Below, piece by piece: positions 15,031-37,600 of a DNA stretch of 39,940 nt. Under the pieces are notes generated by a model. That model was not told the origin of the DNA. It saw nothing but the letters and a program-made list of their open reading frames with translations, and did no database searches. The number at the start of each line of letters is the position of its first letter. The first letter of the stretch is position 1. The stretch spans positions 1 to 39,940 of the forward strand of contig JACQVP010000063.1 in NCBI GenBank assembly GCA_016209715.1, written 5' to 3'. The position numbers and the translations under genes are program-made. This DNA comes from Candidatus Omnitrophota bacterium. GTDB lineage: Bacteria > Omnitrophota > Omnitrophia > Omnitrophales > Omnitrophaceae.

Positions 15031-15459
15031 TCAGTCGATAAAGCTGGAATATTTGAACCAGTAGGCGCAAAACGCTCGGGCAAATCTCACCAGTTCGCCG
15101 TAGCCCGAAGGCTTCCGGACGTAGCTGTTGGCCCCCATCCGGTAGGACTCGAGGATGTCGCGGCGATCGGCGGAGTTGGTGAAGACGACGACGGGAACAT
15201 GCTGGAAACGGACGGCGGAACGGAGGCGCTTGAGGACTTCCCGGCCGTCCACCTTCGGCATATTGAGGTCGAGGAGCACAATGGCCGGCAGGACGGCCCC
15301 GTCGGTCTGGTTGAAAAAGTACTCGAGGGCCTCCGCGCCGTCTTTCTTCCAGTCCAGCTCCACCTCCGAGGCGCAGCTCTCTTTGAAGGCGTCGCTCATC
15401 AGCGAGTAATCGTCTTCGTCGTCGTCAACGACCAGGATTTTTTTCCTAAACGGGCTCAT
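15031..15459 (-). CDS. Single-domain response regulator (Rcp1-like)
   Basis: LVVDDDEDD, LLDLNMPKVDG, GANSYVRKP; GGAGG upstream of ATG 15459. Confidence 0.9.
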   Translation of the reverse strand: MSPFRKKILVVDDDEDDYSLMSDAFKESCASEVELDWKKDGAEALEYFFNQTDGAVLPAIVLLDLNMPKVDGREVLKRLRSAVRFQHVPVVVFTNSADRRDILESYRMGANSYVRKPSGYGELVRFARAFCAYWFKYSSFID

Positions 15460-16972
15460 GTCCGCCCTCCCCGGCACCCACGGGAAGCGTCACGATGAAC
15501 GTCGCCCCCCGCCCTTCCGCGCTCTCCGCACGGATTTCGCCGCGATGATAATTCACGATTTTTTGGCAAATCGACAGCCCGATCCCCGTCCCTTCGTATT
15601 CGTTCTTACCGTGCAACCTTTGAAAGGGCTGGAAGACCTTGTCCGCGTATTTTTGGTCGAAACCGATGCCGTTGTCCCGGACGCGGATCTCAAACATGCC
15701 GTCCTTGGCCTGGCTTTGGATGCTGATCTCCGGAGGGGTCCCCTTTTTGGCAAACTTAATGGAATTGAGGATCAAGTTCTGGAAAAGGTGCCGTATCTGC
15801 GCGCCGTTGGCCCTGATCACGGGCAGATCCCCAAGGGTGATCCTGGCGCCGGATTCCGAAATCTTGACGTCGAGGTCCGCGAGCAATTCGATCAGCACCT
15901 GGCGCAGATCGGTCCTTTCGAACACCACCCGCCCGCTCGCCAGCCGCGAAAACTGGAGCAGGTCCTCGATGACTTTCTTCATCCTCTGGCCGGCGGCGTT
16001 GATGCGCTCCAGGTATTCGCGCTCGCTGCCCTTCAGGTCCGCCGAGGACGACACCCTCTCGCTGAACGAAATGATTTTACGGAGCGGCTCCTGAAGGTCG
16101 TGAGAGGAAATATAGGCGAATTGTTCCAATTCTTTATTGGTGTTGGAAAGCTCCTCGTTCCTGAGCCGGAGCTCTTCGGCGTAACGGGCGATGTCCTGCT
16201 CGGCCTTCTTTCGATCGGCAATGTCCACGATCGAGCTCAAAACAAAGACCCCGTCCTGCGTGGTGATGGGATTCAGGCCGATCTCGACCGGGACCTCGGT
16301 CCCGTCCTTTCGCAGCCCGAACAAATCCCGCACGGCACCCATGGGCCGGACTTGCGGAGAAGCGAGAAAGCCGGCCCGGTGGCCGTGATGAGAGCGGCGA
16401 AACCGTTCCGGCACGAGCATCTCGATCGGCTTGCCCAGGAGCTCGCTGCGTTCATACCCGAAAAGCTTCTCCACCTGCGCGTTGGCCAGGACAATATTGC
16501 CTTCACCGTTGACCATGATCATGGCGCTCGGCGCGGCCTCGGCCATCAGAAGCAAGCGCTGCTCGGCTTCGTTCCGGTTCGTCAAATCCCAGGAAATGAC
16601 GAAGAATCCCGGATAACCGCCGGACGGGTCCACCGGCCGGATCACCACGCGGGCCCAAAAGCGGCTTCCGTTTTTTTTCAACCGCCAAGATTCCCCTTCA
16701 TAGCGGCCGTTGTTCCGGGCCTCCCGGAGCGCCTTTCCCGGAACCCCGCTGGCGCGCTCTTCTTCGGGAAAAAAGAGGGAAAAGTGCCGGCCCAACACTT
16801 CCTCCCGCAAATATCCCTTCATTTTGAAAGCCCCCGCATTCCAGCTCCGGATGATGCCCGCTTCATCGACCACATAAACCGACGAATCTTCCCATTCTTC
16901 GATGAGCTTTCGAAAGTGCTCGTCGCCGATCTGGAAATCCAGATTGCTCACAGGGCTTCTGTCGTCCGACAA
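15446..16972 (-). CDS. Cytoplasmic double-PAS sensor histidine kinase
   Basis: Two PAS domains; H-box SHDLQEPLRKI, N-box NLILNSIKF, DNGIG, GTGIGLSIC; TTG start after AAGGAGG. Confidence 0.92.
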   Translation of the reverse strand: MSDDRSPVSNLDFQIGDEHFRKLIEEWEDSSVYVVDEAGIIRSWNAGAFKMKGYLREEVLGRHFSLFFPEEERASGVPGKALREARNNGRYEGESWRLKKNGSRFWARVVIRPVDPSGGYPGFFVISWDLTNRNEAEQRLLLMAEAAPSAMIMVNGEGNIVLANAQVEKLFGYERSELLGKPIEMLVPERFRRSHHGHRAGFLASPQVRPMGAVRDLFGLRKDGTEVPVEIGLNPITTQDGVFVLSSIVDIADRKKAEQDIARYAEELRLRNEELSNTNKELEQFAYISSHDLQEPLRKIISFSERVSSSADLKGSEREYLERINAAGQRMKKVIEDLLQFSRLASGRVVFERTDLRQVLIELLADLDVKISESGARITLGDLPVIRANGAQIRHLFQNLILNSIKFAKKGTPPEISIQSQAKDGMFEIRVRDNGIGFDQKYADKVFQPFQRLHGKNEYEGTGIGLSICQKIVNYHRGEIRAESAEGRGATFIVTLPVGAGEGGHEPV

Positions 16973-17041
16973 GGGCGCCTCCTTGCAATAGAAAGGCCTG
17001 GTTTTAGCCTCTTCTATTTTAATATAAAGACCGGGCCGGGA

Positions 17042-17977
17042 CTATTTGGGCAAATCGCCGGGAGAGAAGGCGGAAAGAAGGGCTTGATTGGTGGGGTACT
17101 TCTGCATGAGTTCGACCAGCACCCGGGCGGCCTCCGGGGCGTCCATCCCGGCCAGGCCTCGGCGCAGGATCCTGATCCTTTGCAGCTCCTCCGGATCGAG
17201 AAGGAGCTCTTCCTTGCGCGTGCCGCTGCGGGAAATGTCGATCGCGGGAAAGATGCGCCGGGAGGAAATATCGCGGGAGAGGACGATTTCCATATTTCCG
17301 GTTCCCTTGAATTCCTCGAAAATCACGTCGTCCATCCGGCTCCCCGTCTGGATGAGAATGGTCGCCAGGATGGTGAGCGACCCGCCGTTCTCGATCTTGC
17401 GGGCCGAGCCGAAAATCCGGCGCGGCACTTCCAGCGCGCGGGAATCCACGCCTCCGGACAGCGTCCGGCCGCTGGAGCGCCTTTCCACGTTGTGCACCCG
17501 CGACAGCCGCGTCAGCGAATCAATGAGGAGCACCACGTTCTCGCCTTTTCCCGCTTCCTGATAGGCTTGGCGCATCAGCCGGTCGGCCGTCTCGATATGG
17601 TGGTCGTAAGTTTCATCCGAAGACGAAGAGCGCACCTCGGCCGGGACGCTACGCTGAAAATCGGTGACTTCTTCCGGCCGCTCGTCCACCAGCAGGAGAT
17701 ACAATTTGGCCGCCGGCGCCGAAGCCGCGATCGCCCGGCTCAAATGCTTCAGGATAGTGGTCTTGCCGGACCCCGGGGGCGCCACGATAAGCCCGCGCTG
17801 GCCCATGCCAATCGGGCAGACGAGGTCGATCGCGCGCATGGTGAATTCGGAAAGCCCCGCCTCCAGCCGGATCCTGGGCGACGGGTCGACGGGAACGCCG
17901 GAGAAAAAAGGGTCCGCCGTCTGCTGCGGCCGCTGGAAATGTTTTCGGGAATGCCCGGGGGAGTCGTGTCGTCTCAT
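17042..17977 (-). CDS. rho: Short Rho-family ATPase lacking the N-terminal RNA-binding domain
   Basis: PIGMGQRGLIVAPPGSGKT, LVDERPEEVTD, DSLTRL, GRTLSGG, EEFKGTGNME, SGTRKEELL; only 311 aa. Confidence 0.85.
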   Translation of the reverse strand: MRRHDSPGHSRKHFQRPQQTADPFFSGVPVDPSPRIRLEAGLSEFTMRAIDLVCPIGMGQRGLIVAPPGSGKTTILKHLSRAIAASAPAAKLYLLLVDERPEEVTDFQRSVPAEVRSSSSDETYDHHIETADRLMRQAYQEAGKGENVVLLIDSLTRLSRVHNVERRSSGRTLSGGVDSRALEVPRRIFGSARKIENGGSLTILATILIQTGSRMDDVIFEEFKGTGNMEIVLSRDISSRRIFPAIDISRSGTRKEELLLDPEELQRIRILRRGLAGMDAPEAARVLVELMQKYPTNQALLSAFSPGDLPK

Positions 17978-18040
17978 TCGGACATATATTAGCTGAACCC
18001 GGGCGTCTGCGCTCGAAAAACTTTTCGATATTTGCCCGCC

Positions 18041-21000
18041 TCAGGCGGCAGTCGAGATCAGCCTTTCGGACTCGGCGAACCGGAGCAGGTCGGCGATCAG
18101 CCCCATGAGCCGGAACGCCAGATCGTCCGGCGCGCGGGGGAAGCCGTTCGAACCCGCGTCGGCGAGTTGCCGGCGAAGCGTGCTGAAAAGAACCGTTTCG
18201 ACGAACCCGACCAAAAGCGGCAAAGGCAGGGCGCGGCTGGCCGCGCGGCCGAGATGGATTCCCCGTTCGCGCAGGACGGATCCGGGCCCCAGCGCCACCG
18301 GCGTTTCCTCGGAGGCGATAAAGAGCCCGGCCTGCTGAATTTTCCTTCCCGTCACGGGCTTACGGTCGGCGTGACCGATCAAGGCCACGGGAACCCGGAG
18401 GGCGCGGATCCAGTCCAGGGCTTCCGGATCGACGACCGGATAAGAAACGAGCAGTCTCGCGGTTTTGGCGATACGTTCCAAATAAGAAGAGGCCTCGCCC
18501 GTGAACGCGGCGCGGAGGATTTCGTAATCAAAACCGTATGCCCGGGATTCTTCCAGAGACACGGGAGAAAATTCCAAGGCCTCGAGGTCGAAACCCTGCG
18601 CGGCGCGGCGGCCGGAAGCGGCCATGAGCCGGCGCGCCTGTTCCAGAATTTGAATCCGCTCCGCGAGATCCCGGCCGAAAAACCAGGCCAGGCGGGCCCG
18701 ATCCTGCGCGGTGAGAGGGGCCTCGGCGGCCGGGCTTTCCCGCGCGGAAGCGGGCAGGCCGATGAAAAGCGCAAATTGGACCGTGAGAATCAATGCTTCG
18801 GCCTCCCGCTTCGGGACGGCCCCGGCGGATTCCGCCGCCAGACGGCGCGCGAGCGCCGGAAAACCTTGCGCTTCGTCTCTCAGCCATTCAAAAAAATCGG
18901 CGCCTTCCCTTGCCTCAAGGCCCCGTTCGAAACCCTCCCGTAAATTCCGGACAAACGTCTCGGCCCGGACTATTTCCGAATCCGTTTCTTTTTTCCATGC
19001 CGCGACGGCCCCGGCAAAAATGCGCCCGGCTTCTTCGTCGAAAAGCCGCGCCGGCAGATCCAGCGACCGCCACAGCGCCCGCGCATCGGCGCCCAGCGAT
19101 TGCGCCATGCGGGCTTCGATCTTCGTAGGAATGCCGCGTTGCTCCAGGGCCTGTTTCAGACGGCCGTTCGCCGGATCGGACGAGCCCAGGACCTCGGCCA
19201 CACGGCGCCGGAGACGGTCCAACTCATCATGAGTGAGGTCCTCGCGGGCGGTCAAGCGTTCGATCGCCGCCAAGGTCCCCCGCTCATCCGACCCCATGAG
19301 CCGCTTGAGGAGGGTGTCTTCGTCCCAGAATTCTTCTTCTTTCTTGAAGGAGCCGGTATCGATGAAGCGCAATTTGCCGGAACGGTCCAGCAGAAAATTG
19401 AGGGGATTCAGGTCCCAGAGGAAATATCCCCTGGCCGCGTACTTCGCGACCAGCTCGCGAATTTGCCGTTCCGCTCCCGCCGCCATCTCGGGATGGAGTA
19501 CCAGCATGTCGGCGGCCGGCCTCTCATCCAGAAATTCCATCATCAGGATAAGCGACCGGCCCGTCTTGTCCCGCACCGTCCCGAGGAGCCAGGGAGCCGC
19601 CTCGATGTCGTTGGCCTGAGCGAATCGCAGACTTTCCAGGTCCGTCTGAAGGTTCCCGGCGGCGACGGCCGCCGATTTCGCCGTCCCGAATTTCTTTCCG
19701 GTCTCCGATTCCGCCGCCGCCGTTTTTCCGCCCACGATTTTGACGGCGGCGACCCGCGTCTCCCGGGTCCAGGGCAGCGAATATTCCACGCGATAGACGT
19801 CTCCGAATCCGCCGTCGCCGGCCCAGCGGAGCGCGCGGACGGTCAGCCCGCCCTTCTCCAAGGCCTGCCGGAGGTAATCTTGCTGGTCTTCGCCGGGACG
19901 GGGGCGCCTGAACCGGATGTCCGTTTCGGCTTGATCGGGACGCACGACGACCAGAGTGATGTCGTCCAGCCGGAGATTCATGTCCGAGAAAATTTCTTCG
20001 AGGTCCGCGTCGGGAAGAGCGGCGATTTCGGACGGCTCGGGCATCCGCTCCGCGAGATCCGCCGGAAGCGCGTTCGGATGGGCCGCGGCCAATTTGCCCC
20101 GGCCCTGCGGCGTCATTTTGAACATTTCCCGGGCGATCCGCCGCGCCACGCGGGGCTTGTCCAGGCTGACCAAAAGATGCGACATCGCGCGGATGAGCGC
20201 GGAGGTCCGGCGGACCAAATGCCGCGCCATTTCTTCAGCCGAAGGAAGCGGCTCTCCGCTCGCGACCCGCTCCTGAACGAAGCCGTCGGCCATCGCATAA
20301 AGAGTGGCCTCCTGCCCGAGTTCAAGCATCCGGCGCAAAGCCTCATAATGCCGGGCAGGCTCTTCGCGGAGCGCCGCGGCCCGTTCCTCTTCGTCCATTT
20401 CATCCATCCGCGCGAAGGCCTGCGCCAAAAGCGTCTCGGTCTGCAAGAGAGAGTCCATCAGCCCGTCCGTGGAATAAATCAGATAAGACGGAAATTCGAA
20501 GGGATTGACGGGGACGGAAACCGGCCGCACGTCGCCGAGAGGGACTTTCTGGGGCAACCCGAGCGGGGCGAAAGTGATTTCCTGCTCTTTTTTCGCCAAA
20601 GAGGCACTCGCGCCGGAGGAAGCCACCAGGCCGATGACGGGATTGCCGCCGGCCTGAAGCAGGGTGAGCCGGCCGTTTCGCCGGTTGATCACGTGCAGGG
20701 ACACCAGGGTCATGAAGTGCATGGCGTCCAGCAGCTCCTTCATCTCCACCCGCTCGGGCCCGTCACCCTTTCGCTGAATTTCCACCGGCGGAAGCGCCTG
20801 GATTTTCGCTACCTGTTCCCGGCTGAGGCCCCGGGCCAGCGCCGTGATCGAACCGGGAAGATCGTCCAGGCCCTTGACGCGGAGCACATCGAGTAAGCGG
20901 GCCAGCCCTTCGCGCGCCGGCTTGAGCCCGCGCAGCTCCGCGAGGTAATAGGCCACGTTCACGGCATCGATCGCATCCATATAAGCGAGGAGCGCGTGAT

Positions 21001-24000
21001 TCAAAAAGAGAATGAATTCAGTCGTGATGGCCGCGATTCTTTCTTCGCCGGCGGCCTGGATCCGGTCGGCCAGTCGGCCCCGGCCGGAAACCGGGCTCTC
21101 GATCCCGGCGGTTTCGTAGATCCGTATGGCCTCATAGAGCACGTGATTGATCCGGGCGGACGTCATGTCATGCCCTGCCGCGTCCATCAAAAGCACGACC
21201 TCGTACTTTCCGTCCGCGCTCAGGGAAAGATAGTGCCCGTCGCCGCCGTAGGCGTCGTTGAGCGGCTTGGAATAAACATGAGAGCCGGCCAGCATGGATT
21301 TGAAGCGCGAGGCCGAACGGCGTATGTCAGGCAAAGAAATCGAATCGAAGAGCGAGACTTCTTCTTTCAGCCGTTCCAGCAGGGCGGCCTGATATTCGGA
21401 TGGGCCCGTCACCTCCGGTTTTTCAACGAGAGCGCCCAGGGAATTGCCGAAGACGCTCTCGAGGTCAAAGCGCCCCTCATAAGTCAGCCAGGAAGTCGTG
21501 CCCCGGCCTTCCGGACCGGACGGGGTGACGGCAAATCCCCAGCGGCTGTCCGCGGAAACGGGGCCCCGCTCTTCCATCAAACGCGCCGCGCTGAGCGCCC
21601 CCAGCACATTGCCGGCGTCCGTCAAAGCCGTGCGACCCTGCGGCGTGACCGCCAGATAATGAAATCCCGCGCTCAGGCCGATCTTGGCCAGCTCCGGCAT
21701 CTCCGCGAAAACCCGAGCCCCGTCCGACGTCCTCCCGGTCAGGCTCATCACGCCGTAGGGAGACAGATTTTCGGCGGCCATATTCGCGGAAATAGCGCTG
21801 CCCGGCGTTCCTTGACTGACGGCCGCGAAGGCAAAATTGGCGAGAGGACCCGCCAGAGCGATCTCCTGAAGCCGTTTCGGGTTTTTAACGGCCCACGCGT
21901 CGAGCGTGGGATATTCCGCGGTGGGAACGAACTGCCGCCCCATGTCCACCCCCGCAAAATGAAGCGGCATCACGAACCGGCCCCGGCTCAATTTTCCGGT
22001 CACGAGGCCGGAGCCCACCCCGAGGGCCAAATTGCCCCAGCCGTAACCGTAAATCCGAGAAACTTCGGGGGCCCGGAAATTGCCGGGCGCGGCCAAATGC
22101 ATTTTTTGGGCATGCGCGAACTCATGAAAATAAAGAGACGGCAGGGGAGCGAGCGCCGCCGTCAAGAGACGCCGGGTGTCGCCGGCAGGCACTCCCCGGC
22201 GGGCCCAGTCCCGGTCCAGGGAATGCAGGGCATAGTTCGCGCCGATCGAAATCGCCAAAGCGGCCGCCCATTTTTCTTTGGCCTGCACGGCCGCTTCGGG
22301 AGCCGCGGAAACCGCGGACAAGAATTGGCCGAAGAACAGGGACACGGCCAAGACTATGGCCGCCGTCCTCCGCCGGAGCGGGGATTCCCGCCGCTCGCCC
22401 AGAGCCGACGCCGCCGGTAAGGATTCGAAGGCGAGTTGCGGCCATCCCGGAACGAAGGATGCCTTTTCGGCCGCGGCGGAAGCGCGGACTTTTTTCATCA
22501 TCGCGTTGTATCCGGCGCGCCGTTTTTTCCGGTATTGAAATCCGTCGTCGAGGTACAAATTTTCGGCGGCCTCGTTGCCGGCTTCGACTTCCAGGACCAG
22601 GCGCGTCCTGCCCTCCTCGCGGGCGACCTGTTCGGTGGCGGCGAGCAACTGGCGCCGGGTCCCGGGATCGGGCCGGACGGCCATCATCTCGATCTCAAGA
22701 TAGCGGTCCCCCGTGTTCGGGATTTCGGATTCCGGATTGTTCACGACATACCCCACGACTTGCCCGTCGGCAATGGCCACCACGCTCCATTCGCCGAGTT
22801 CGTCGCGTTGCATCTCCAGCACAATGTCCTGATTGATCCCCAGGATCTCGCCCTTCAGAAAGGCCTCCGCGGAGGCGAGATCCGAGATCCGGTAAAACCC
22901 GTCTTTCAGGCCCGTGACCGCGCCCAGTGACGACGCCGTGCCTCGGGCCCCCTTGGCCGGGCCCGCCGCGCGATGCCATTCCGCTTCGGCGGCCGCCCGA
23001 AAAGCAGTGAAATCGGCCTGCGCCAGGAATTGATTCACCCGGTCCCGGTAGGCCGCGAATTCCGGGGTTTGGCTGATCGCGGGATGGCGCCCCAGGCGAT
23101 CCACTTCCACTTTGCGGCTGCGCACCGCCCCGGCGAATTCCTCCTCGCCCAGAAGGGCGGCGAATTCCAGCTCGAAGCGCAGGACGGAAAAATCCTGATG
23201 GAGCGTGAACCCGCCGAGCAGGACCTCGTCTCCCGCGATGTTATCCCGGGCGAACTCACTCTCTACGAGTTCGTGAAACAACGCGCTCTTGCCGATGAAA
23301 AATCCATTTTCTCCGAGTTCTTTTTCCCGCTCGATTTGGCCGGTAAACAGATACATGCCGGGGCCGCGGATTTCGGGAGACTCAAACCATTGGGTCCCGG
23401 CAAATTCCTCCGGGGCCCGGAACGAGTCGCCTGCCTTCTCCCTGTCCTCCGCCAGCTGTTGCCGGAGCCGCTCGATTTGCCGGAAGATTTCGTCCGTCAC
23501 CGTGACTAGGGCGTAAACGCCCGGCCCGGCGAGGCCGGCAACTTCAATCATCCCGAACGCGCGGCCGAAGTCCCCGGCGGGAACCTGTCGCAATTCGTCC
23601 AGGGACCGATAGCGGGAGGCGATGTTTTTCCAGACCGCGGCGGCGGCCCTTTCACGACGCGCTTGCATCAGTCCCAGCGCGTCGATGAATCTTCCGGCCA
23701 GGCGGTGTTGGGCGGGATCCCGGGCCTCCGAAAGCCCGGCGTCGCTGACGGCAAAAGCGATTTGATCGCCGGGATACAGGACACTGATCAAATTATAGTC
23801 CGCGCCGTCCACCATCGGCTGGAGGACCCCCAGGCGAATCAAATCTCTGATGTCGGCATCGGTAAAATCGGCGCGGTTGCCGAGCAAAAGCTCCCGGATC
23901 GCCGGGGCAATGGCCTCAAGCGTCCGCGAATCGCCCTGAAGATCGGCAGGGATCGTTTTGGCTCCGTATCGAAGCGTGACGGCCGAACCCAGCGCCGCGG

Positions 24001-25945
24001 CGGCGAGAGGCTCTCCCCGCGGGCGGGCCCGCTTCGGGATCTGCCCGCGCAAAACGTTTTCGAACAAGCCCGGCCCGTCCGCGATCATGTTGTCGAGCGA
24101 AGCGGCCAGCATCGATGCCCGGAACCGCCGCCCCAGTCGGCCCAGCTTCTTCCACGATTGTTCCCGAATGCGGCGGACGGAACGGGCGCGAAAAGCGGCC
24201 CATTCCGGTTCCGCCGCCGCGGACAATTGGTCCTTGGCCCGGCGCGAATCCGAAGATCCGTATTTTTGGGCGTATTCGGCCGCCAGGCGGTCAATGTAAG
24301 GCGTGTATTCCGCCGCTTTATCCAAACGTCCCTGCCGGCCCAAAGCTCCCAGCAGATCCCGGCGCCATTGCCGGAGGATCCGCTTCAGATCGGGCTCATT
24401 CAGGCCGTCCGTCAGGGCCTTCGCGGCATGCTTCAGGAAAGCGTCGTAGGCGGTCGTTTCGAGAAATGATTTATACGACACGTCTCCCATCAGCACCGGC
24501 GCATACCGGTCTGACCCCCGGAGCGAATCGATCCGCGGCGTAATCAGCGCGTAGGAATAGCCCTTCGCTTTGAGGCTCTCGAAAAAACCCCCGGTGTGAA
24601 AGCCCCCCGCCAAGACCACGACGGAGCGCGCCCGGGTCTTTTTGAGCAAACGGCTCAGATTGTTCTCGAGGGCCCCGTCGCGCGCGAGCGCCGTGCGGTA
24701 AAATTCCTCGGCCGGCTCCAGCAAATCCGCGCGGGAGAAAAAGTCGAGAACGGCCCCGCGCTTTTCTTGATAGGCCTTCCAATCCTCGCGGCTCATCTCG
24801 AGCTGGGCCAGGCGCCGGAGCCAGATCAAATATTCATAGCGGGAAGAAATCCGTTCCGCTTCCGGGCCGGAGACCAGTCCGCGCTCAGTCTCCCGGAGAA
24901 GGCTTTCGATCTCGCCGAAAACGCGGCTGCCTTTGATTGCGGCCACCGAAGCGGCCTCGTCGAGCAGCTCTTTTTGCGCGGGCGTCCATGCGGCGGGTAT
25001 CTGCCGGGACAAGGCCAGCCGGGAAAGATATTTCAGATAGGATGCCGTGTCGAGCCGGCCGGTCATGAATTCCTGATGGCGGGCGCGGGCGATTTTTAAT
25101 TGCCGCGCGCTGAACCGGCGCCCGTGCGAGCGAAGGAGTTCCCGGCCCAGCTCTCGCGCGGATGCCGCCAGTTGATCCGCGTCGAGCGCTTCCGTCCGGC
25201 CGAGAGAAGCAAGCAGGCGGGACAATTCCGGATACCGGCCGGTTTTTCCCCGCACCGCCGGAGATTCGCCGAGAAAGCGCAGGAACTCGAGCCAATCCAG
25301 GCGGTCGTTCCGGAAGGCGTCCGCCTTCTCGTGAAAGGCATTGTGGCCGGCCGTGTACACCCGCTTTCTTTCCGCGTCCAACCGTGCGCGCAAATCTTCA
25401 AGCGTGCGGTTGATTTCCTCCTGTCCGGCCGCAGACCGGAGGTAAGCCCGGTAATTTTTTTCGTATAAGCGGGTGTCTTCAAGGCCATAAAAATCAGCCT
25501 CGGGACCGAACACAGCCGCGAGCTGGGCCCCGGTGACTTCTCCCCGTTCGAGATAGCCCCGGAACGCCAGGCGCTTTTTCCTCGACGCGGGAAAGGCGCG
25601 CAAAACCGCCGGATCGATGCGGCCCGCTCCGCCTTCCAGCGCCACGAGCCGGACGCCGCAGGCCCGATTCAAATACCCGATCAAGTCGCGGATATGAATT
25701 TGCGCGTCCACCGTCGCGTGGGCGTCCTGAATAAAAATCACGAAGGGTTGATCGCTTGCCGGCGCGCGGAATTCCCGGAGCGTTCCGAGTTCGGGCGGCA
25801 CGGTCAAACGGCCGGAAAGATAAAAACCTTCCGCGGCCGGGGCGGACGGAACGGTAGCGGCCGGCGCCATCTGAGCGGGGAGGAAACACGCCAATATAAA
25901 TAATGACAAAAATTTTCGAATGGGAACTGACATCTTAATCAACAC
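18041..25945 (-). CDS. Giant secreted multi-module protein (TIKI/EreA-like N-domain, GNAT, M50 protease, PP2C phosphatase, Ser/Thr kinase) with repeated [AG]x[SA]LG linkers
   Basis: 2634-aa ORF, N-terminal hydrophobic signal; motifs IQDAH/ALEG/GGFH, NEAAENLY..GF, HEFAH/AGPLAN/NLSP..SDG, DAAGHD/TDG/DDITL, GDGGFG/VAAVK/DLNPLN/IDTG; alternative ATG at 25933. Confidence 0.85.
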   Translation of the reverse strand: MLIKMSVPIRKFLSLFILACFLPAQMAPAATVPSAPAAEGFYLSGRLTVPPELGTLREFRAPASDQPFVIFIQDAHATVDAQIHIRDLIGYLNRACGVRLVALEGGAGRIDPAVLRAFPASRKKRLAFRGYLERGEVTGAQLAAVFGPEADFYGLEDTRLYEKNYRAYLRSAAGQEEINRTLEDLRARLDAERKRVYTAGHNAFHEKADAFRNDRLDWLEFLRFLGESPAVRGKTGRYPELSRLLASLGRTEALDADQLAASARELGRELLRSHGRRFSARQLKIARARHQEFMTGRLDTASYLKYLSRLALSRQIPAAWTPAQKELLDEAASVAAIKGSRVFGEIESLLRETERGLVSGPEAERISSRYEYLIWLRRLAQLEMSREDWKAYQEKRGAVLDFFSRADLLEPAEEFYRTALARDGALENNLSRLLKKTRARSVVVLAGGFHTGGFFESLKAKGYSYALITPRIDSLRGSDRYAPVLMGDVSYKSFLETTAYDAFLKHAAKALTDGLNEPDLKRILRQWRRDLLGALGRQGRLDKAAEYTPYIDRLAAEYAQKYGSSDSRRAKDQLSAAAEPEWAAFRARSVRRIREQSWKKLGRLGRRFRASMLAASLDNMIADGPGLFENVLRGQIPKRARPRGEPLAAAALGSAVTLRYGAKTIPADLQGDSRTLEAIAPAIRELLLGNRADFTDADIRDLIRLGVLQPMVDGADYNLISVLYPGDQIAFAVSDAGLSEARDPAQHRLAGRFIDALGLMQARRERAAAAVWKNIASRYRSLDELRQVPAGDFGRAFGMIEVAGLAGPGVYALVTVTDEIFRQIERLRQQLAEDREKAGDSFRAPEEFAGTQWFESPEIRGPGMYLFTGQIEREKELGENGFFIGKSALFHELVESEFARDNIAGDEVLLGGFTLHQDFSVLRFELEFAALLGEEEFAGAVRSRKVEVDRLGRHPAISQTPEFAAYRDRVNQFLAQADFTAFRAAAEAEWHRAAGPAKGARGTASSLGAVTGLKDGFYRISDLASAEAFLKGEILGINQDIVLEMQRDELGEWSVVAIADGQVVGYVVNNPESEIPNTGDRYLEIEMMAVRPDPGTRRQLLAATEQVAREEGRTRLVLEVEAGNEAAENLYLDDGFQYRKKRRAGYNAMMKKVRASAAAEKASFVPGWPQLAFESLPAASALGERRESPLRRRTAAIVLAVSLFFGQFLSAVSAAPEAAVQAKEKWAAALAISIGANYALHSLDRDWARRGVPAGDTRRLLTAALAPLPSLYFHEFAHAQKMHLAAPGNFRAPEVSRIYGYGWGNLALGVGSGLVTGKLSRGRFVMPLHFAGVDMGRQFVPTAEYPTLDAWAVKNPKRLQEIALAGPLANFAFAAVSQGTPGSAISANMAAENLSPYGVMSLTGRTSDGARVFAEMPELAKIGLSAGFHYLAVTPQGRTALTDAGNVLGALSAARLMEERGPVSADSRWGFAVTPSGPEGRGTTSWLTYEGRFDLESVFGNSLGALVEKPEVTGPSEYQAALLERLKEEVSLFDSISLPDIRRSASRFKSMLAGSHVYSKPLNDAYGGDGHYLSLSADGKYEVVLLMDAAGHDMTSARINHVLYEAIRIYETAGIESPVSGRGRLADRIQAAGEERIAAITTEFILFLNHALLAYMDAIDAVNVAYYLAELRGLKPAREGLARLLDVLRVKGLDDLPGSITALARGLSREQVAKIQALPPVEIQRKGDGPERVEMKELLDAMHFMTLVSLHVINRRNGRLTLLQAGGNPVIGLVASSGASASLAKKEQEITFAPLGLPQKVPLGDVRPVSVPVNPFEFPSYLIYSTDGLMDSLLQTETLLAQAFARMDEMDEEERAAALREEPARHYEALRRMLELGQEATLYAMADGFVQERVASGEPLPSAEEMARHLVRRTSALIRAMSHLLVSLDKPRVARRIAREMFKMTPQGRGKLAAAHPNALPADLAERMPEPSEIAALPDADLEEIFSDMNLRLDDITLVVVRPDQAETDIRFRRPRPGEDQQDYLRQALEKGGLTVRALRWAGDGGFGDVYRVEYSLPWTRETRVAAVKIVGGKTAAAESETGKKFGTAKSAAVAAGNLQTDLESLRFAQANDIEAAPWLLGTVRDKTGRSLILMMEFLDERPAADMLVLHPEMAAGAERQIRELVAKYAARGYFLWDLNPLNFLLDRSGKLRFIDTGSFKKEEEFWDEDTLLKRLMGSDERGTLAAIERLTAREDLTHDELDRLRRRVAEVLGSSDPANGRLKQALEQRGIPTKIEARMAQSLGADARALWRSLDLPARLFDEEAGRIFAGAVAAWKKETDSEIVRAETFVRNLREGFERGLEAREGADFFEWLRDEAQGFPALARRLAAESAGAVPKREAEALILTVQFALFIGLPASARESPAAEAPLTAQDRARLAWFFGRDLAERIQILEQARRLMAASGRRAAQGFDLEALEFSPVSLEESRAYGFDYEILRAAFTGEASSYLERIAKTARLLVSYPVVDPEALDWIRALRVPVALIGHADRKPVTGRKIQQAGLFIASEETPVALGPGSVLRERGIHLGRAASRALPLPLLVGFVETVLFSTLRRQLADAGSNGFPRAPDDLAFRLMGLIADLLRFAESERLISTAA

Positions 25946-31116: not shown

Positions 31117-33042
31117 GTGAATTTCTTCCGGGAGCAGGAACGCGCCCGCTCGAAGACCCGCTGGCTCGTCCTCTTTTATCTCATCACCGTCGGGCTGATC
31201 ATCCTCGCCGTATACCCCGCCGTCCTTTACGCCCTCACTTTCATTGATCAGGAGCGCGCCTTCCGGTTTCATTCCCTCGCCTTCCCGCAAAATTTTTGGG
31301 ACCCGGCCGTTGGCCTCGGGACATCGCTCGCCGTCCTTGCGATCGTGCTGATCGGGTCCGTGGCCAAAATCATCGAATTGAGCCGGGGAGGCCGCGCCGT
31401 CGCGGAATTTCTCGGGGGCCGGCTCCTCCCGCCGGGAACAACGGACCCGGAAGAGCGGCAGGTCCTGAATATCGTCGAAGAGGTAGCCATCGCGTCGGGG
31501 ACCGGCGTCCCTCCCGTGTACCTGCTCGACGAGGAAAAATCGATCAACGCCTTCGCGGCGGGATTTTCCACGCGCGACGCGGTCATCGGCGTCACCCACG
31601 GGGCCGTCAAGCTCTTGTCGAGGGACGAATTGCAGGGCGTGATCGCCCATGAATTCAGCCATATCCTGAACGGCGACATGCGCCTGAATCTCCGCCTCAT
31701 GGGCATCCTTCACGGCATCCTGATGATGACCGTCATCGGGCGCGGCCTGCTGGATGTCTGCCGGCCCCGGGGCTCCCGCAAACGGGGAGGCGGCGGGGGA
31801 GGCATCCTCGGCGCCGTCGCCATCACCGGTTTCACATTTTGGCTGGTCGGCTGGATCGGAGTTTTTTTCAGCCGGCTCATCAAGAGCGCCATCTCGCGCC
31901 AGCGGGAATCGCTGGCCGACGCCTCGGCCGTCCAATACACCCGCCTCCCGGTCGGCCTTGCCGGCGCGCTCAAGAAAATCGGCGGCCTGTCACACCGCTC
32001 CGTCCTCGAGCATCCCCGGGCCGAAGAGGCGAGCCACCTTTATTTCGCCAAAGGTCTCGCGCTGGCCCGCCTGTTCGACACGCATCCCCCGCTCGAGCAG
32101 CGGATCAAACAGCTGGATCCCGCCTTCGACGGCGCCTGGCCCCTGGTCAGATATCCCGAGAAGCCGCGTCCCGTCATCGAAAAGCCCAAACCCCCGCTCG
32201 CCGTGCCTTCGGCCGCGGCCCTGCAAGTGAACGCCCTCCTCGCCGGGCTCGGCCAATTGAACGAATCCCATCTGGCATGGTCGGCCTCGCTCATCGCCGA
32301 AATCCCGGAATTCATCCGGGAGAATTTAAGGGACGCCGTCGGCGCGCGCGCCGTCTTCTATTCTCTCCTGCTGGAACCGGCCCGCGAAGAAACCAAGAAA
32401 ATTCAGCGCCGGCATCTTTTTCAGCACGGCAACTATCTCGTCTACCAGCGCCTCTTGAAAATCGCCCAGGCCGCATCGGCCCTGCCCGTCCGCCTGCGCT
32501 TGCCGCTCGTGGACCTCGCCCTGCCGTCCCTCTCGACGCTGTCGCCGGCGCAATACGCCATGTTCCGGAACGACACGGAGGTTTTGATCGCCGCGGACGG
32601 CAAAGTCTATCCTTTTGAATTGGCGCTCAAAATCGTGGCCCTGCATCATCTCGACGGCGTATTCGGGAGGGAAATGAAGCGGGAAGCGGCGGCGGGTGAA
32701 AAGGAAATCCTCGAGGCGGGAATGGTTCTTTTCGCGTTTCTCGCGAACACCGGCCATTGCGGAAACCCGGCCAAAGCCGAGGCCGCGTTCCGGGAAGCGG
32801 CCGCCCACTGGGGCGAAGGCGCCCCGGCCGTCGCATTCAAGGCCTCCGACACGGCCGATCCCGGCTCCGTCGAGCAAGCGCTCTCCGTCCTGCAGGGATT
32901 GAAGCCCGCTCAAAAGAAAGTTTTTCTCCGCGCCTGCGCGCGCTCCATCCGAAGCGACAGCGTCTGTCTTCCCGAAGAAATCGAAGTGGTCCGCGCCTTC
33001 GCCGACGTTCTCGACACTCCCGTCGGCCCGGTGTTGGGCTGA
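31117..33042 (+). CDS. M48/HtpX-like membrane zinc protease with long C-terminal extension
   Basis: INAFAAG, IAHEFSH, ISRQRESLAD, THPPLEQRI; follows lemA. Confidence 0.88.
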   Translation: MNFFREQERARSKTRWLVLFYLITVGLIILAVYPAVLYALTFIDQERAFRFHSLAFPQNFWDPAVGLGTSLAVLAIVLIGSVAKIIELSRGGRAVAEFLGGRLLPPGTTDPEERQVLNIVEEVAIASGTGVPPVYLLDEEKSINAFAAGFSTRDAVIGVTHGAVKLLSRDELQGVIAHEFSHILNGDMRLNLRLMGILHGILMMTVIGRGLLDVCRPRGSRKRGGGGGGILGAVAITGFTFWLVGWIGVFFSRLIKSAISRQRESLADASAVQYTRLPVGLAGALKKIGGLSHRSVLEHPRAEEASHLYFAKGLALARLFDTHPPLEQRIKQLDPAFDGAWPLVRYPEKPRPVIEKPKPPLAVPSAAALQVNALLAGLGQLNESHLAWSASLIAEIPEFIRENLRDAVGARAVFYSLLLEPAREETKKIQRRHLFQHGNYLVYQRLLKIAQAASALPVRLRLPLVDLALPSLSTLSPAQYAMFRNDTEVLIAADGKVYPFELALKIVALHHLDGVFGREMKREAAAGEKEILEAGMVLFAFLANTGHCGNPAKAEAAFREAAAHWGEGAPAVAFKASDTADPGSVEQALSVLQGLKPAQKKVFLRACARSIRSDSVCLPEEIEVVRAFADVLDTPVGPVLG

Positions 33043-33050
33043 GTCAGCGC

Positions 33051-34637
33051 TTATTCGTACTTGCCGAAGGCCTGGAGTTCGTGGGTTTTTGCATATCCGC
33101 CGCCGTGGGCATCCACGAGTTTGACTTTGATATACCGCACCGGGACCGGCGCGGCGAAAACATATTCCTGGTAGGCGTTGCCGGCGAAAACCATATTCAT
33201 CGTTTCAAAAGTTCCCAGCGGCTCATAGCCCGAAGTCGGCGAGGTCTTCGACCCGGAGATCTCGATCGTCTTGACGTTGTATTGAGAAGCCTCAAAAATG
33301 GGGACGGCGACTTTCGTGATCACCACCGTCCGGTTATCCCGGAACCCAAAAATACCTTCCTCGTTTCCGTAGGTGACCACGGACTCGCCGGGATGATCGA
33401 AAGTGCCGTCAATCAACTTGGCAAATTCCGGCCGCGCCCCCGCGATAAAAACACCGCCGTTGGCGGCGGCCAGGACATTCATTTCCTGCCGGCCGGTCCG
33501 GCTTTGGGCCTCCTTGAATTCATCCTCCGTCAGATAGCGCCCGTGAGCGCGGAGTTCTCTCGGATAGGATTGACTGCCGCCCGCGCCCGGGCCGAACACC
33601 ACTTTCAGATGACGCACGGCCACAGGCGGATCAAAGGCGAATTCCTGATACACCTCCTGGAACATCACCTGGTTTTTCACTTCGATCTTGCTCAGCGGAA
33701 AAAACGCCTTTTCATCGGCCGTGGCGGCCGATCCCCAAAGTTCCAAAGAACTCGGATTGTATTGATGCGTCTCGAAAACCGGCACGGCAAGGGCCTCTAT
33801 CAACGCTGCCTGGCCGTCCTTAAACGAGAAAACGATATTGTCTCCCTGCCAAACCGCATCTTTCATGGCCTCTTCACTGCCGTCGATCAGGGCGGCAAGC
33901 CCGGGCTTGGTGGAGGAGACGATGCGCGTTCCTTCGGAAGCGGCCAGCAGGTTGGGTTTGGCTTCCTTCTGAGGCACGAGCAGCATTTCCTTTTGCGCCG
34001 CCTCTTCGAGAGACTTTTCCAACTCGCCCACATTGCTCGCTTCCGTGTAACTGCCGCCGCTGACATCGGCGAGTTTTTTCAATTGGGCGCGGGCGGCCTC
34101 GGAGGCGTCAAAGCCGATGGCGTGGATTTTGATGTCAATGCCCTGGGCCTTTAGGTTCTGCATCACCGCGATCGGGTCTTTGCCGCAGGTTTCCTCGCCG
34201 TCGCTGATCAAAATGACCGTTTTTTTGATATCCGGCGAGGGGGTGAAATCCCTGCCCGCCAGCTCAAGAGAATGGCCGAGAGCGGTCATGCCAAACGATT
34301 GGAGCCCCTGCACTTTTTCAAGCATCACGTCCCCGCGAAACGGCGCGATCGGCATGGCCAGCACCGAATCTTCGCAAGACTGCAGCATATTGCCTTGAAT
34401 GGACGTGGTGCCGAAGATCCGCAGGCCTACCCGTGAGCCGGGCTGGATTTGGCCGGCAACCGTGCTCATCGCCTGTTTAGCCAAGGCCAGTTTCGTCCCC
34501 CCTTCAATCGGATCATTCATGCTGCGTGATCCGTCGAATATAATTTCGATTTCGGATTGCGCGAAAGCCGGCGAGACCGTCAAGAAGAACGCGATCATGA
34601 GGAAGCCCAAAAACCGGAACGAAGGATTTCTTAACAT
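33051..34637 (-). CDS. Secreted VWA-domain protein with two discoidin (F5/8 type C)-like repeats
   Basis: Signal peptide ending AFA; MIDAS DGSRS and ISDG; repeats N(L/V)LAA..G...LIDG...VR(H/Y).KV...EL.A.G.Y. Confidence 0.8.
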   Translation of the reverse strand: MLRNPSFRFLGFLMIAFFLTVSPAFAQSEIEIIFDGSRSMNDPIEGGTKLALAKQAMSTVAGQIQPGSRVGLRIFGTTSIQGNMLQSCEDSVLAMPIAPFRGDVMLEKVQGLQSFGMTALGHSLELAGRDFTPSPDIKKTVILISDGEETCGKDPIAVMQNLKAQGIDIKIHAIGFDASEAARAQLKKLADVSGGSYTEASNVGELEKSLEEAAQKEMLLVPQKEAKPNLLAASEGTRIVSSTKPGLAALIDGSEEAMKDAVWQGDNIVFSFKDGQAALIEALAVPVFETHQYNPSSLELWGSAATADEKAFFPLSKIEVKNQVMFQEVYQEFAFDPPVAVRHLKVVFGPGAGGSQSYPRELRAHGRYLTEDEFKEAQSRTGRQEMNVLAAANGGVFIAGARPEFAKLIDGTFDHPGESVVTYGNEEGIFGFRDNRTVVITKVAVPIFEASQYNVKTIEISGSKTSPTSGYEPLGTFETMNMVFAGNAYQEYVFAAPVPVRYIKVKLVDAHGGGYAKTHELQAFGKYE

Positions 34638-34655
34638 GACTTTTCCTTTCTCGAG

Positions 34656-37600
34656 TTATTCAACGGCATCGGCCGCGCGGTCGATGGCCACTTCCATCGG
34701 AGTGATGTTCCCGCCTTCTTGCCGTATCTCCTTCATCAGCGCGTCCCGCTTGGGGCCGGGAGGGGTGTTGCGTATGCGTTCCTGGATTCCCTGCATGCTT
34801 CCGCCGCGATAGGTCGAGATCCTTTCCGCCGCAACCTCCGGATTAGCGCTGAACCGTTCGCCATAGGGCTCCGAGGCGGCCAGGTTGTCCTGCAAATTGC
34901 GCGTCAATTCCCGGCCGCGCGTGACCGATCCCGCCGCGGCTTTCGTCGGATAGGATCTCAGCATGCCGTCCAGTTCGCGAAAACGCGTATCGTCAAACGC
35001 TTGGCCGGATTGCCGCCGCGCCTCTTTGAGATTGCGCTGGAAAATCGATTCGGCCAAATGCGCGCGCACTTCGTTCAGCCGGCCCTTGGTTTCCGGCCCT
35101 TTGAAGCCAGGCTTATTCTGCGCGGCCCAGGACTTTTCGCCTTTATAGGTATGGGCGTATTCATGAACAATGCTGCTGGCGACCGACTCCGGACTGCGCA
35201 GTTTGGCGGTACCGGGATCATAAGGGTTCACTTGAACGTAATTCTTCTTAAAATTGCCGTCGGCGACGCCGTAGCCCTTGAGCGCCGGCTCATAAAAATA
35301 ATCGAACTTGCGGCCCGCGTCCTGGCTTTTGAGATCGTCGAGCACGCGCCTGGCCCACTTGTCACCCTGGCCCGCGGCGTCTTGGAGTGCCTTATGAACT
35401 TGGGCGTCAAAGGCCTCGCGCTGGGCCTGCGGCGTGGACATCCATTCCTTGCGCAGACGGCCCACTTCTTTCAGGTCCTTCTGAAGAATATCTTTACCGA
35501 CGGGCGCCGGGACGCGCTTCGTCCGGTCTTCAGGGACATCGGCATCATCGAGGTCTACTGCCTTCGGGGCCGCCGCCGGCGGTTTCGGGGCTTCCGTGAT
35601 TTCGGTTTTGCGGCCGAGACGCGGCGTTGTTTTCGTGCCCGCGGGATATTCGATCGTCGGCCGCATCTTTGCCGAGACGGCCGGCGGCCCGTCAGGCGCG
35701 TCAATGCGTTTGAGTTGACCGACAGCCGGATCCGGATTCGCGGCGCCGCCCGATGCCGTGCGCCCGGTCCCTACGAAATCATCCGCGCCGGGAAGAACGC
35801 GGCCCGCGAGCCCCCCGAAAACCAGCTCGCCCGCGGCCGACGCCCCGGCTTCGTACACCGCTTCACCGACCGTGAGCTCACGCCCCATGTCCGCGCCGGA
35901 CATGTCCTGCTGAAATGCGAGAGTCATCAACGGGTCCGCGGGATTCATCGAACTGAACCAATCCGTCATCCCATAGGCAATCTCTTTACTGCCCGCCAGG
36001 ATCCCGCTTTGAACATCCTCGCGCGTCGCGATACCGGCCCGCCGCAGCGCGTCGTTTTCCGCGCGGCGAAGAAGATCATCGCTCTCGCCCCGGGCCCCGG
36101 CCAGATCGCTCATATCGAAAGAACGCTTGGCGGCCTGCGCCAGCGGCTCATCGCGGCCCGTGTTGCCGCGCTCAAAGCTTCCGCCCATGAGCTTTGAATA
36201 CTCGCGCGCCGTGTGAAGCTGGGCGAGGTGGTTGGCGCCGTCAACCTTCAGCATTTGGTCCAGGTTGTCGGCAAGCTGGACGCGTCTCCGGGCATCCTGC
36301 AGCTGCTCGGGCGTGGCCGGAATTTTAGTCGCGTTGCCATTCTCGTCCGTCGACGCGATGGCGCCGGTTTCGATGACCCGGCGGTAATAATCGCGGCGTT
36401 TGTGCATTTCTTCCTGAATCATGTCCATTTCAAACTGGCGGACTTCCTGAGGAGTCTGCGGATCGGCCTCCTCCCAGCGGCGGTCGAATTCGGCCTGGCG
36501 CCGGCGCTCCTGCTCTTCCTGAGCGCGCGCCCGGCTTCCCTTTTCGCGCGCGTCCGCGGCGGCTTGTTCAGCCGCGGCCTTTTCGGCGTCGAGCGCGGCC
36601 TGGCGCTCGGCTTGCTCCTGCCGGATCGCTTCCAATTTCCCGCGCTCGGCTTCCTGCCGCACTCTTTCGTCTTCCCCCAGTTTGTCGAGAGAAGCTTCCC
36701 GGCGCGCTTGATCCTTTTCTCTTTGCGCCTCCAGCCGCTCCCGCGATTCCCGGTTCTGATCGATGAATTCCTGATCGCGACGGTACTGTTCCCGGTCCCG
36801 GTCGGAAAGATCTTCCCAGTTCTGCCTCAAACCGAGTTCCCGCTTTTGTTCTTCGAATAGATGGCGCCCGGGCTCGATTTCGCGGCCCTCCGCCTCTCGC
36901 CTCTCCAGAACATCGCCGTTCTGATCGAGCACCAGCTCGCGGGCCGGCCCCTCATCATAGCGGGTGGTGCGGACCGTATTTCCCATGTCATCCGCGCGGT
37001 TTTCAACCAACACCCGTTTCTCCGAGACGAGATTGCCGTCCGGATCATAAACGCGTTCCGTGCCGTAGCCGTCGCGGTCAAATTCCGTGACGGTCGTATG
37101 CTGCCAGGGATCGACGCGCGCCTCCACCGTCCGGCCCTGATCGTCGGTCTCGGTGATCGTGGGATTTCCAAACGAGTCCGTGCGCGTGCGGCTGACCAGC
37201 CGGCCCTGGCTGTCCCGCTGTTCCGTGATACTGCCGCCGGAGCCGGACCCGCTCTCTTCAAATTCCGTGACGGTTTCGCCGGTGGCCGGATCGGTCGTAA
37301 CCGTGCGGCGGGCACCGTCCGGCAGCTCCGTGGTTTCAATGCGCCGCCCGTCTTCACCCGTCCGGGTGGTCTTGACGGTCGTACCCGCTTCCGGAGAGGA
37401 GCTGGTTTCAATCACCGTGCCGTCGGCGCGGGTCTCGACGCGTTCCACGCGCCCATCCTTGTATTCCGTGGTTTCGATTTTGTTTCCGTCCGCGTCCCTC
37501 TCAACCGTGTGTTGATTGCCCTGTTCATCCGTCCATTCCGATTTGCCTTCCGGGCCTTTTTCTTTTTCCTCCGGGCCCTCTTCGGGCAAATCTTCCGGCG

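Follow-up and report, generated by a model that had tools for sequence, protein, structure and literature searches.

A five-residue motif marks the module joints of giant Omnitrophota proteins in two dialects and may be a polyprotein cut site

The subject of this study is a giant gene on the reverse strand of a 39,940-nucleotide (nt) contig of Candidatus Omnitrophota bacterium (GenBank assembly GCA_016209715.1, contig JACQVP010000063.1; the whole contig is called the window). Its product consists of an N-terminal head domain followed by a chain of modules, and the five-residue motif [AG]x[SA]LG stands at each of the five joints. The motif is constrained as protein and lies at module borders, both here and in related giant proteins. 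It occurs in two dialects, and modules bordered by it have been shuffled between proteins. We propose, with even odds, that a site-specific endopeptidase recognizes the motif, in which case the protein would be a polyprotein.

The motif and the modules of the giant protein

A sequence-only reading of the window had picked out five matches to the motif, and all five were recovered among the 31 LG dipeptides of the protein at exactly the residues and nucleotides that it had given (Table 1). An expectation of 1.1 matches was calculated from composition, and 0.6% of 5,000 shuffles reached five. This figure is weak alone because the pattern was defined after looking, and replication elsewhere was therefore sought. 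The gene's contig is C52 of a 1.37-Mb genome in 115 contigs that is 69% complete, for which a crude greedy set of open reading frames (ORFs), spurious frames included, was compiled. Giant or family proteins, 38,251 amino acids (aa) in total, held AA[AS]LG 12 times, compared with 6 times for the 423,419 aa of the other ORFs, a 22-fold enrichment; the wider [AG].[SA]LG was found 40 and 110 times, respectively (4-fold). Five giants of this genome, C10, C96, C53, C50, and C103, contained 3-8 sites each by the strict pattern. No motif was present in its complete giant ORFs without the head (C110, C63).

The whole protein was searched against Pfam, NCBIfam, and PDB sequences, with a GNAT domain as the sole match; it was then cut at the motifs, and each piece was searched against Pfam. 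The unrelated enzyme cargos proposed by the sequence-only reading were supported to differing degrees. The GNAT acetyltransferase of module M2 was clearly recognized (PF00583, E-value 6.7e-9, 36.5 bits against a cut-off of 20.7, aa 1053-1136), and the PP2C/SpoIIE-like phosphatase of M4 was borderline (PF07228, E 1.1e-5, 25.9 bits against a cut-off of 25; 17.6 bits for the homologue in genome G002). The kinase-like part of M4 and the M50-like character of M3 were recognized from weak matches and from motifs by eye. The former gave a very weak ABC1 match (E 0.17), shows a kinase-type glycine loop, and also matches C39 of the same genome. M3 scored 10.1 bits against peptidase M50 (PF02163, E 0.52; 11.9 bits and E 0.14 in the G002 copy; cut-off 27.2) and carries HEFAH and IALAGPLANF in a hydrophobic setting, with HEFAH and LAGPLAN conserved in the G002 copy. 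M3 opens with a basic stretch, and hydropathy places a strong hydrophobic helix at aa 1194-1212, right after motif 3. No Pfam match was obtained for the head, M1, or the C-terminal module in the piecewise search, and the ESM Atlas scores, at most 0.88 for M1 and at most 0.80 for the C-terminal module, are leads only. A cysteine protease domain (CPD), peptidase families C39 and S8, RTX repeats, and a type I secretion signal were all absent from the protein by Pfam. A word-index search with aa 640-2634 for full-length orthologues returned only the protein itself (lengths 1,448-4,610 aa).

Translation probably starts at the ATG of codon 5 (nt 25931-25933), as judged from the paralogue alignment. 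The public gene call P0006 (2,609 aa) begins at codon 26 of the ORF, 21 codons past the conserved ATG (window 25871-25945), and so leaves out the signal-like helix common to all paralogues. This N-terminal feature is present in all 8 paralogues; here the hydropathy maximum lies at aa 12-30, and both AlphaFold2 (AF2) models place a helix at residues 4-22, followed by a disordered stretch. The gene is spanned by unitigs from 3 public DNA runs on groundwater, all from a single study, without insertions, deletions, or joints.

Table 1. Features of the giant gene and its product, with window coordinates
Feature	Residues (aa)	Position (nt)	Strand	Basis
Giant gene, 2,634 codons + stop		18041..25945	-	open reading frame
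Signal peptide or signal anchor: basic start, hydrophobic core, Ala/Pro-rich stretch	5-31	25853..25933	-	called by eye
N-domain (head): alpha/beta core, large helical insert, helical extension	~45-565	24251..25813	-	AF2
Motif 1, AAALG, first joint past N-domain	649-653	23987..24001	-	
Module M1, family not assigned	654-1003	22937..23986	-	no Pfam match under E 0.03
Motif 2, ASSLG	1004-1008	22922..22936	-	
Module M2, GNAT acetyltransferase	1009-1178	22412..22921	-	PF00583
Motif 3, ASALG	1179-1183	22397..22411	-	
Module M3, M50-like membrane module	1184-1499	21449..22396	-	motifs by eye, hydropathy, weak Pfam
Motif 4, GNSLG	1500-1504	21434..21448	-	
Module M4, PP2C/SpoIIE-like phosphatase, then protein-kinase-like part	1505-2280	19106..21433	-	borderline Pfam
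Motif 5, AQSLG	2281-2285	19091..19105	-	
C-terminal module, two moderately hydrophobic stretches, family not assigned	2286-2634	18044..19090	-	

Two dialects of the motif

The spread of the motif was studied in 109 head-bearing proteins of at least 1,400 aa, taken from the representatives of a global library and from 20 loci. Two or more motifs of the type found here (SLG) were present in 48 of them, typically at 20-60 times expectation. In 51 others, R[AS]E[VLAMI]R (RER) was found in place of SLG, and 10 had neither; the two motifs almost never occurred in the same protein. A further sample comprised 62 giant proteins from 29 related genomes, among which 54 carried at least two copies of a motif, each fitting the dialect of its family, and the remaining 8 carried fewer than two or none (Table 2). 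All 15 giants of families f1, f6, and f8 had 2-15 SLG motifs per protein, against an expected 0.06-0.30. Local variants were also observed, namely RSETR in G030 and G[AR]SLG in G007. No third dialect was evident in the motif-free genomes G006, G003, and G011.

Table 2. Sampled giant proteins with at least two copies of either motif, by family
Family	SLG, at least two	RER, at least two
f1	8/8	0
f6	2/2	0
f8	5/5	0
f3	0	5/5
f7	0	4/4
f9	0	8/9
f5	1/26 (L028)	22/26

The dialect follows the genome and not the lineage of the head. On a tree of the 109 heads the dialects were interleaved, with 7 changes over 99 labelled tips, compared with 26-40 changes for shuffled labels (10 of 200 shuffles). The paralogues of one genome were spread over different head clades and yet shared one dialect, and a single clade mixed dialects by genome.

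Position of the motif in linkers

The claim of the sequence-only reading that each motif falls at a domain junction was confirmed by the piecewise Pfam searches, the borders shared with G002, linker composition, the position of motifs relative to Pfam domains, and AF2. The complete enzymes that Pfam recognized in 12 SLG-dialect proteins were glutamate dehydrogenase, phosphoglucomutase I-III, ROK kinase, alanine dehydrogenase, transaldolase, SecA, APH, CheR, methyltransferases, a receiver domain, galactokinase, and GNAT. At a Pfam coverage of 12.4%, 10.0 of their 81 motifs would be expected inside the best Pfam stretch, and none was found there. Multi-domain enzymes (phosphoglucomutase I-III, N- and C-terminal domains of glutamate dehydrogenase and of alanine dehydrogenase, SecA) were never split by a motif, and several motifs lay 2-35 aa from the ends of Pfam domains. 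In the AF2 model of aa 5-700, which is confident up to about residue 560, the predicted local distance difference test (pLDDT) score was 50-64 from there across AAALG. This motif received no confident placement in the model and was not docked on the head (pLDDT about 50). AAALG also comes after the head in the paralogues C101, C62, C39, and C8 of the same genome.

The two dialects share the same site geometry. Within 10 aa on each side of 329 SLG and 352 RER sites, the fraction of W, F, Y, I, L, V, C, and M was about 0.25, compared with a background of 0.32. The median spacing was 432 aa for SLG (n = 255) and 311 aa for RER (n = 297); the first site lay at median aa 641 and the last about 300 aa before the C-terminus. 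In both dialects the core is sharply bounded and five residues long, with a small residue at position 2 and an aliphatic one at position 4. The residue directly after the core was Pro at a frequency of 0.01, against a background of 0.05, and was mostly small or acidic (396 and 674 sites). Pro directly after the cut is not accepted by many endopeptidases.

Several other features of these proteins were recorded. It was considered whether modules generally start with their own signal or membrane helix, and this was rejected, as only 5.7% of SLG sites, a minority, showed one, compared with 1.9% of random positions. In the giants C50 and C53, LW[LMF] precedes most xSLG motifs by 3-8 residues and perhaps marks the conserved end of a repeated module type. 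Giants of the same genome (e.g., C75 and C103) carry the repeat SKTGVNWDDLEAL, and NWDDL was counted 47 times in giants and never elsewhere; C75 has a repeat of about 100 aa with DKVLNALGYDKK. Five RER-dialect proteins (L034, P0069, P0100, P0114, P0135) end with the motif and a conserved tail of 5-9 residues; in 4 of the 5 the motif reads R[AS]E[LI]R and the tail has five residues, the last two being SA. The motif can thus occupy the very C-terminus.

Codon usage and module exchange

As the sequence-only reading had stated, the Ser codons of the motifs are TCA, TCC, and TCG, and CTGGG[TC] is common to all five sites. Its proposal of a protein-level constraint was borne out in a wider set of sites. 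At 43 sites of the same genome, Ser was coded by six codons, Leu by four, and Gly by four; codons differed again in G002 and in G020, a genome of 37% guanine-cytosine (GC) content in which TTA/TTG and TCT were used. The variation of codons within and between genomes shows that the SLG motif is constrained as protein. Unlike SLG, the RER motif has strongly biased codons, CGC-KCC-GAG-GTG-CGG (77 sites; L023, L028, L029, L035, and others). In the G007 protein L039, 3 of 4 sites were identical in DNA.

Among the 41 sampled genomes of the same order, homologues of the cargo modules were found in G002 only, which belongs to another genus. The M3 homologue (38-47% identity) occupies aa 419-859 of C86 of G002, a 4,185-aa frame, and the M4 homologue (28-33% identity) aa 663-1463 of C93 of G002, a 1,883-aa frame. 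The proposal of swappable cargo is thus supported: G002 carries M3 and M4 in separate giant proteins, with neighbours that differ from those here. An xSLG motif stands at all four M3 and M4 borders in both species, with linkers of different length. ASALG before M3 aligns with AGSLG in C86, where AQSLG follows the module, and C93 has ASSLG before M4 and GNSLG at the border matching motif 5.

A conserved C-terminal part, also assumed by the sequence-only reading, was not found. No homologue of aa 2286-2634 was present in the same genome including its ORFs, in 150 library representatives, or in 20 loci, and the segment stood alone in a clustering of the C-terminal 330 aa from 109 members. Three recurrent C-terminal domains were found in other members (clusters of 22, 19, and 16).

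The head domain

The conserved N-terminal part that had been suggested proved to be widespread. Residues ~10-580 recur in seven paralogues of the same genome, where they open frames of 574 to 3,970 aa, and copies of the head were found in 41/41 sampled genomes, where the longest frame had 12,270 aa. When the eight paralogues were combined into a profile and searched against 1.84 billion proteins, 10,027 cluster representatives matched at E <= 0.001. The match started within the first 67 residues in all of the 150 representatives listed, which were 536-7,722 aa long. A locus search with a single head-domain sequence found no relative.

No Pfam family was obtained for aa 1-653 at E <= 10, the eight-paralogue profile detected no related PDB chain, and Foldseek of the head against PDB gave no match at E <= 0.001. 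The AF2 model of the head (pLDDT 86, predicted template modelling score 0.76; pLDDT 82 in the aa 5-700 model) shows an alpha/beta core interrupted by a helical insert of ~280 aa. In an exhaustive structural alignment against 48,161 chains with VIA-align, the best match was EreC (6xcq; Z 9.0, root-mean-square deviation 3.6, 159 aa), and HopBA1 (5t09, Z 8.6), the Ere-like 2qgm (Z 8.3) and 2rad (Z 8.0), and ChaN (2g5g, Z 8.0) were also retrieved. One unrelated methyltransferase was among the six best rows (Z 8.2). The Z values are middling by the tool's own scale, so the resemblance of the predicted fold to erythromycin esterase/ChaN is moderately supported. This fold class also takes in the TIKI and TraB/PrgY proteases. 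H72, Q78, E100, G135, G150, E152, G443, G444, and H446 were invariant in 40 sequences (numbers count from the ATG start; adding 4 gives ORF numbering), and H72, E100, and H446 also in a 42-sequence alignment.

Cleavage and alternative explanations

The giant protein is one member of a very large Omnitrophota family in which a putative Sec-type signal peptide is followed by a head of about 560 aa and then by a string of complete, mutually unrelated enzymes. Each joint carries the five-residue 'punctuation' motif within a short hydrophilic linker of about 20 aa, written [AG]-x-S/A-L-G in this genome and in f1, f6, and f8, and R-[AS]-E-x-R in f3, f5, f7, and f9. If the motif is a cut site, an endopeptidase would cut just after the five-residue core, and the head, M1, the GNAT enzyme, the membrane M50-like module, the phosphatase-kinase, and the C-terminal module would be set free. 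One trans-acting factor per genome would read the motif and serve all such proteins. The shared geometry and the near absence of Pro after the core suggest a cut right after it. The cargo consists of whole cytoplasmic-type enzymes, some of which are oligomeric when free, such as glutamate dehydrogenase, and release might permit their assembly. The tie of the dialect to the genome rather than to the head lineage favours a single trans-acting reader. The reader is therefore most likely one factor per genome, and the embedded M50-like module or a head with private specificity is less likely.

A possible, though less probable, explanation is that the linker motif is bound and not cut. A chaperone, a translocon or targeting factor, a scaffold, or a modifying enzyme might then dock on it, and the product would stay one long chain. 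The placement in linkers suits binding as well as cutting, a genome-wide dialect suits any single trans-acting reader, and the available text of a preprint treats multi-enzyme giants as membrane-anchored single proteins (bioRxiv 10.64898/2026.06.07.730766). However, Ser-directed modification is ruled out as the common function because a third of the RER sites (R-A-E-x-R) have no Ser or Thr. That Pro so rarely follows the core, in either dialect, would be more usual for a cut site, and the use of whole oligomeric enzymes as units would speak for release.

Self-processing, by the embedded M50-like module or by the protein's own esterase/TIKI-like head, is improbable. The head is the sole part common to all punctuated proteins and has the invariant His, Glu, and His; its best fold matches share a superfamily with the TIKI metalloproteases; the complete headless giants of this genome are motif-free; and M3 has HEFAH and LAGPLAN. 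The sequence-only reading had proposed a self-processing polyprotein, and for the M50-like module this is not supported by the distribution of M3. A profile of the two M3 sequences detected the module in only 2/41 genomes, and the SLG genomes G001, G007, G009, G015, and G020 are without it, so it cannot be the general reader. For the head, divergent copies of one genome share a dialect, close copies from different genomes differ in it, and AF2 leaves AAALG undocked. The head as the element that sets specificity was not supported, since no alignment column tracks the dialect: the largest difference in class frequency was 0.56, and most of 5 independent contrasts were unchanged, a comparison of low power. 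Complex prediction of a head (aa 40-487 of A2) with a 44-aa linker around AQSLG gave a score of 0.01 and no placement.

An element that acts at the nucleotide level, is read in frame, and has no meaning in the protein is very improbable; examples would be a joint at which cassettes recombine or an RNA signal. CTGGG[TC] at all five sites, the GAGGTG core of the biased RER codons, and the DNA-identical sites of L039 would agree with it, and the diversity of Ser, Leu, and Gly codons at SLG sites in this genome, different again in G002 and G020, disagrees with it. Chance or low-complexity composition in an Ala/Leu/Gly-rich protein, to which the post-hoc p = 0.006 of the giant protein alone would leave room, is counted as refuted by the enrichment within the genome, the excess over expectation elsewhere, and the lack of sites inside domains.

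Several points weigh against cleavage by a dedicated endopeptidase. The cut and the reader protease are both hypothetical so far, and a conserved linker motif could serve binding instead of cutting. M3 is restricted to two of the 41 genomes, and no head column follows the dialect over the 5 independent contrasts available. L028 has 8 RER motifs plus 3 AAALG, and motif-free family members exist (the 10 of 109 long members, plus G003, G006, and C91 and C4 of this genome). The biased codons of RER would be compatible with some role of that dialect at the nucleotide level. Finally, cargo dependent on ATP, NAD, and acetyl-CoA behind a signal peptide is unexplained and is a difficulty for every reading.

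A wider picture is offered only tentatively. Whole 'operons' might be written as single ORFs, with thousands of signal-peptide-bearing polyproteins that have an esterase/TIKI-fold head in common, a lineage-specific code read by a once-per-genome endopeptidase, and genome-wide switches of this code on several occasions; the released enzymes might act outside the producer's cytoplasm, possibly in a host or prey cell.

Gene neighbourhood

A gene for a 311-aa protein (17042-17977, reverse strand) lies 64 nt downstream of the giant gene. The protein has a Rho-like ATPase domain only (ATP-synt_ab, E 2e-20; Rho-type motifs by eye) and is without the RNA-binding N-terminus; a 42%-identical partial copy stands at the start of contig C5 of the same genome. 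The stretch 31117-38183, 5-12 kb from the giant gene, holds a forward-strand M48 peptidase of 641 aa that has a long extension, a 528-aa VWA protein, and an ORF of 1,175 aa without a Pfam match. Two long forward-strand ORFs, 15458-17992 (844 aa, without a Pfam match) and 19100-20896 (598 aa), are antisense to annotated genes and are probably by-products of the 60-64% GC content. The product of the neighbouring YebC gene showed 73-63% identity to its 12 best matches.

Comparison with known systems

Giant Omnitrophota proteins, the 'Archaeovorins', have been reported (West-Roberts et al., 2023, bioRxiv 10.1101/2023.11.21.568195), and 'multi-enzyme metabolic clusters' in this phylum are the subject of the preprint cited above (10.64898/2026.06.07.730766). 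As far as the available passages of these preprints go, the proteins resemble the one studied here in phylum, in the signal peptide and/or transmembrane helices, and in the many unrelated Pfam enzymes in one chain, and they share ROK, response regulator, phosphoglucomutase, methyltransferases, SecA, and GNAT with the SLG proteins. The preprint giants have at least 10,000 aa, compared with 2,634 aa here. The protein shows the class 1 trait of the 2026 preprint, distinct enzyme families tiled with a signal peptide and/or transmembrane helices, far below the 10,000-aa threshold. The preprint passages on Omnitrophota giants, supplements apart, contain no head family, joint motif, or dialects, and the available text of the 2026 preprint makes no mention of cleavage, a motif, or a polyprotein. 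In these passages and in full-text literature searches, neither the head family nor the punctuation motif and its dialects were found described.

The available literature leaves it open whether Omnitrophota giants function uncut or in pieces, and it names missing cut points as the obstacle. The motif offers the first concrete and exact candidate cut points, five here and hundreds per genome, and the two dialects can be mutual controls. It also supplies a rule by which giant proteins can be divided before their structures are predicted or their parts annotated.

The head resembles the EreC/ChaN/HopBA1 proteins in its predicted alpha/beta fold, and its invariant His, Glu, and His are candidate counterparts of catalytic residues in the known enzymes; it differs from them in the added helical insert and in the lack of a sequence-level match. 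The P97/P102 adhesins of Mycoplasma hyopneumoniae and the gingipain polyproteins are large surface proteins that are cut at short motifs in disordered stretches. Those are adhesins and proteases with a different motif and without dialects, whereas strings of metabolic enzymes are found here. MARTX toxins are large secreted proteins in which linker-separated, unrelated effectors are freed by cuts at short sites after Leu. In contrast, the proteins studied here have housekeeping-type cargo, a longer motif, lineage dialects, and a reader that is apparently not embedded, and Pfam recognized neither a cysteine protease domain nor RTX repeats nor a type I secretion signal in the present protein.

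In viral polyproteins with 3C/NIa-type sites, one ORF holds whole proteins with a short, lineage-variable site at each junction. The proteins studied here are instead coded on a cellular chromosome, with dozens of paralogues per genome and no common embedded protease. Of the traits of self-processing in MARTX toxins and viral polyproteins, the conserved junction sites are present and a family-wide embedded protease was not found. If cleavage is true, these proteins would be a widespread cellular counterpart of viral polyproteins, with a recognition code that co-evolves over hundreds of sites per genome.

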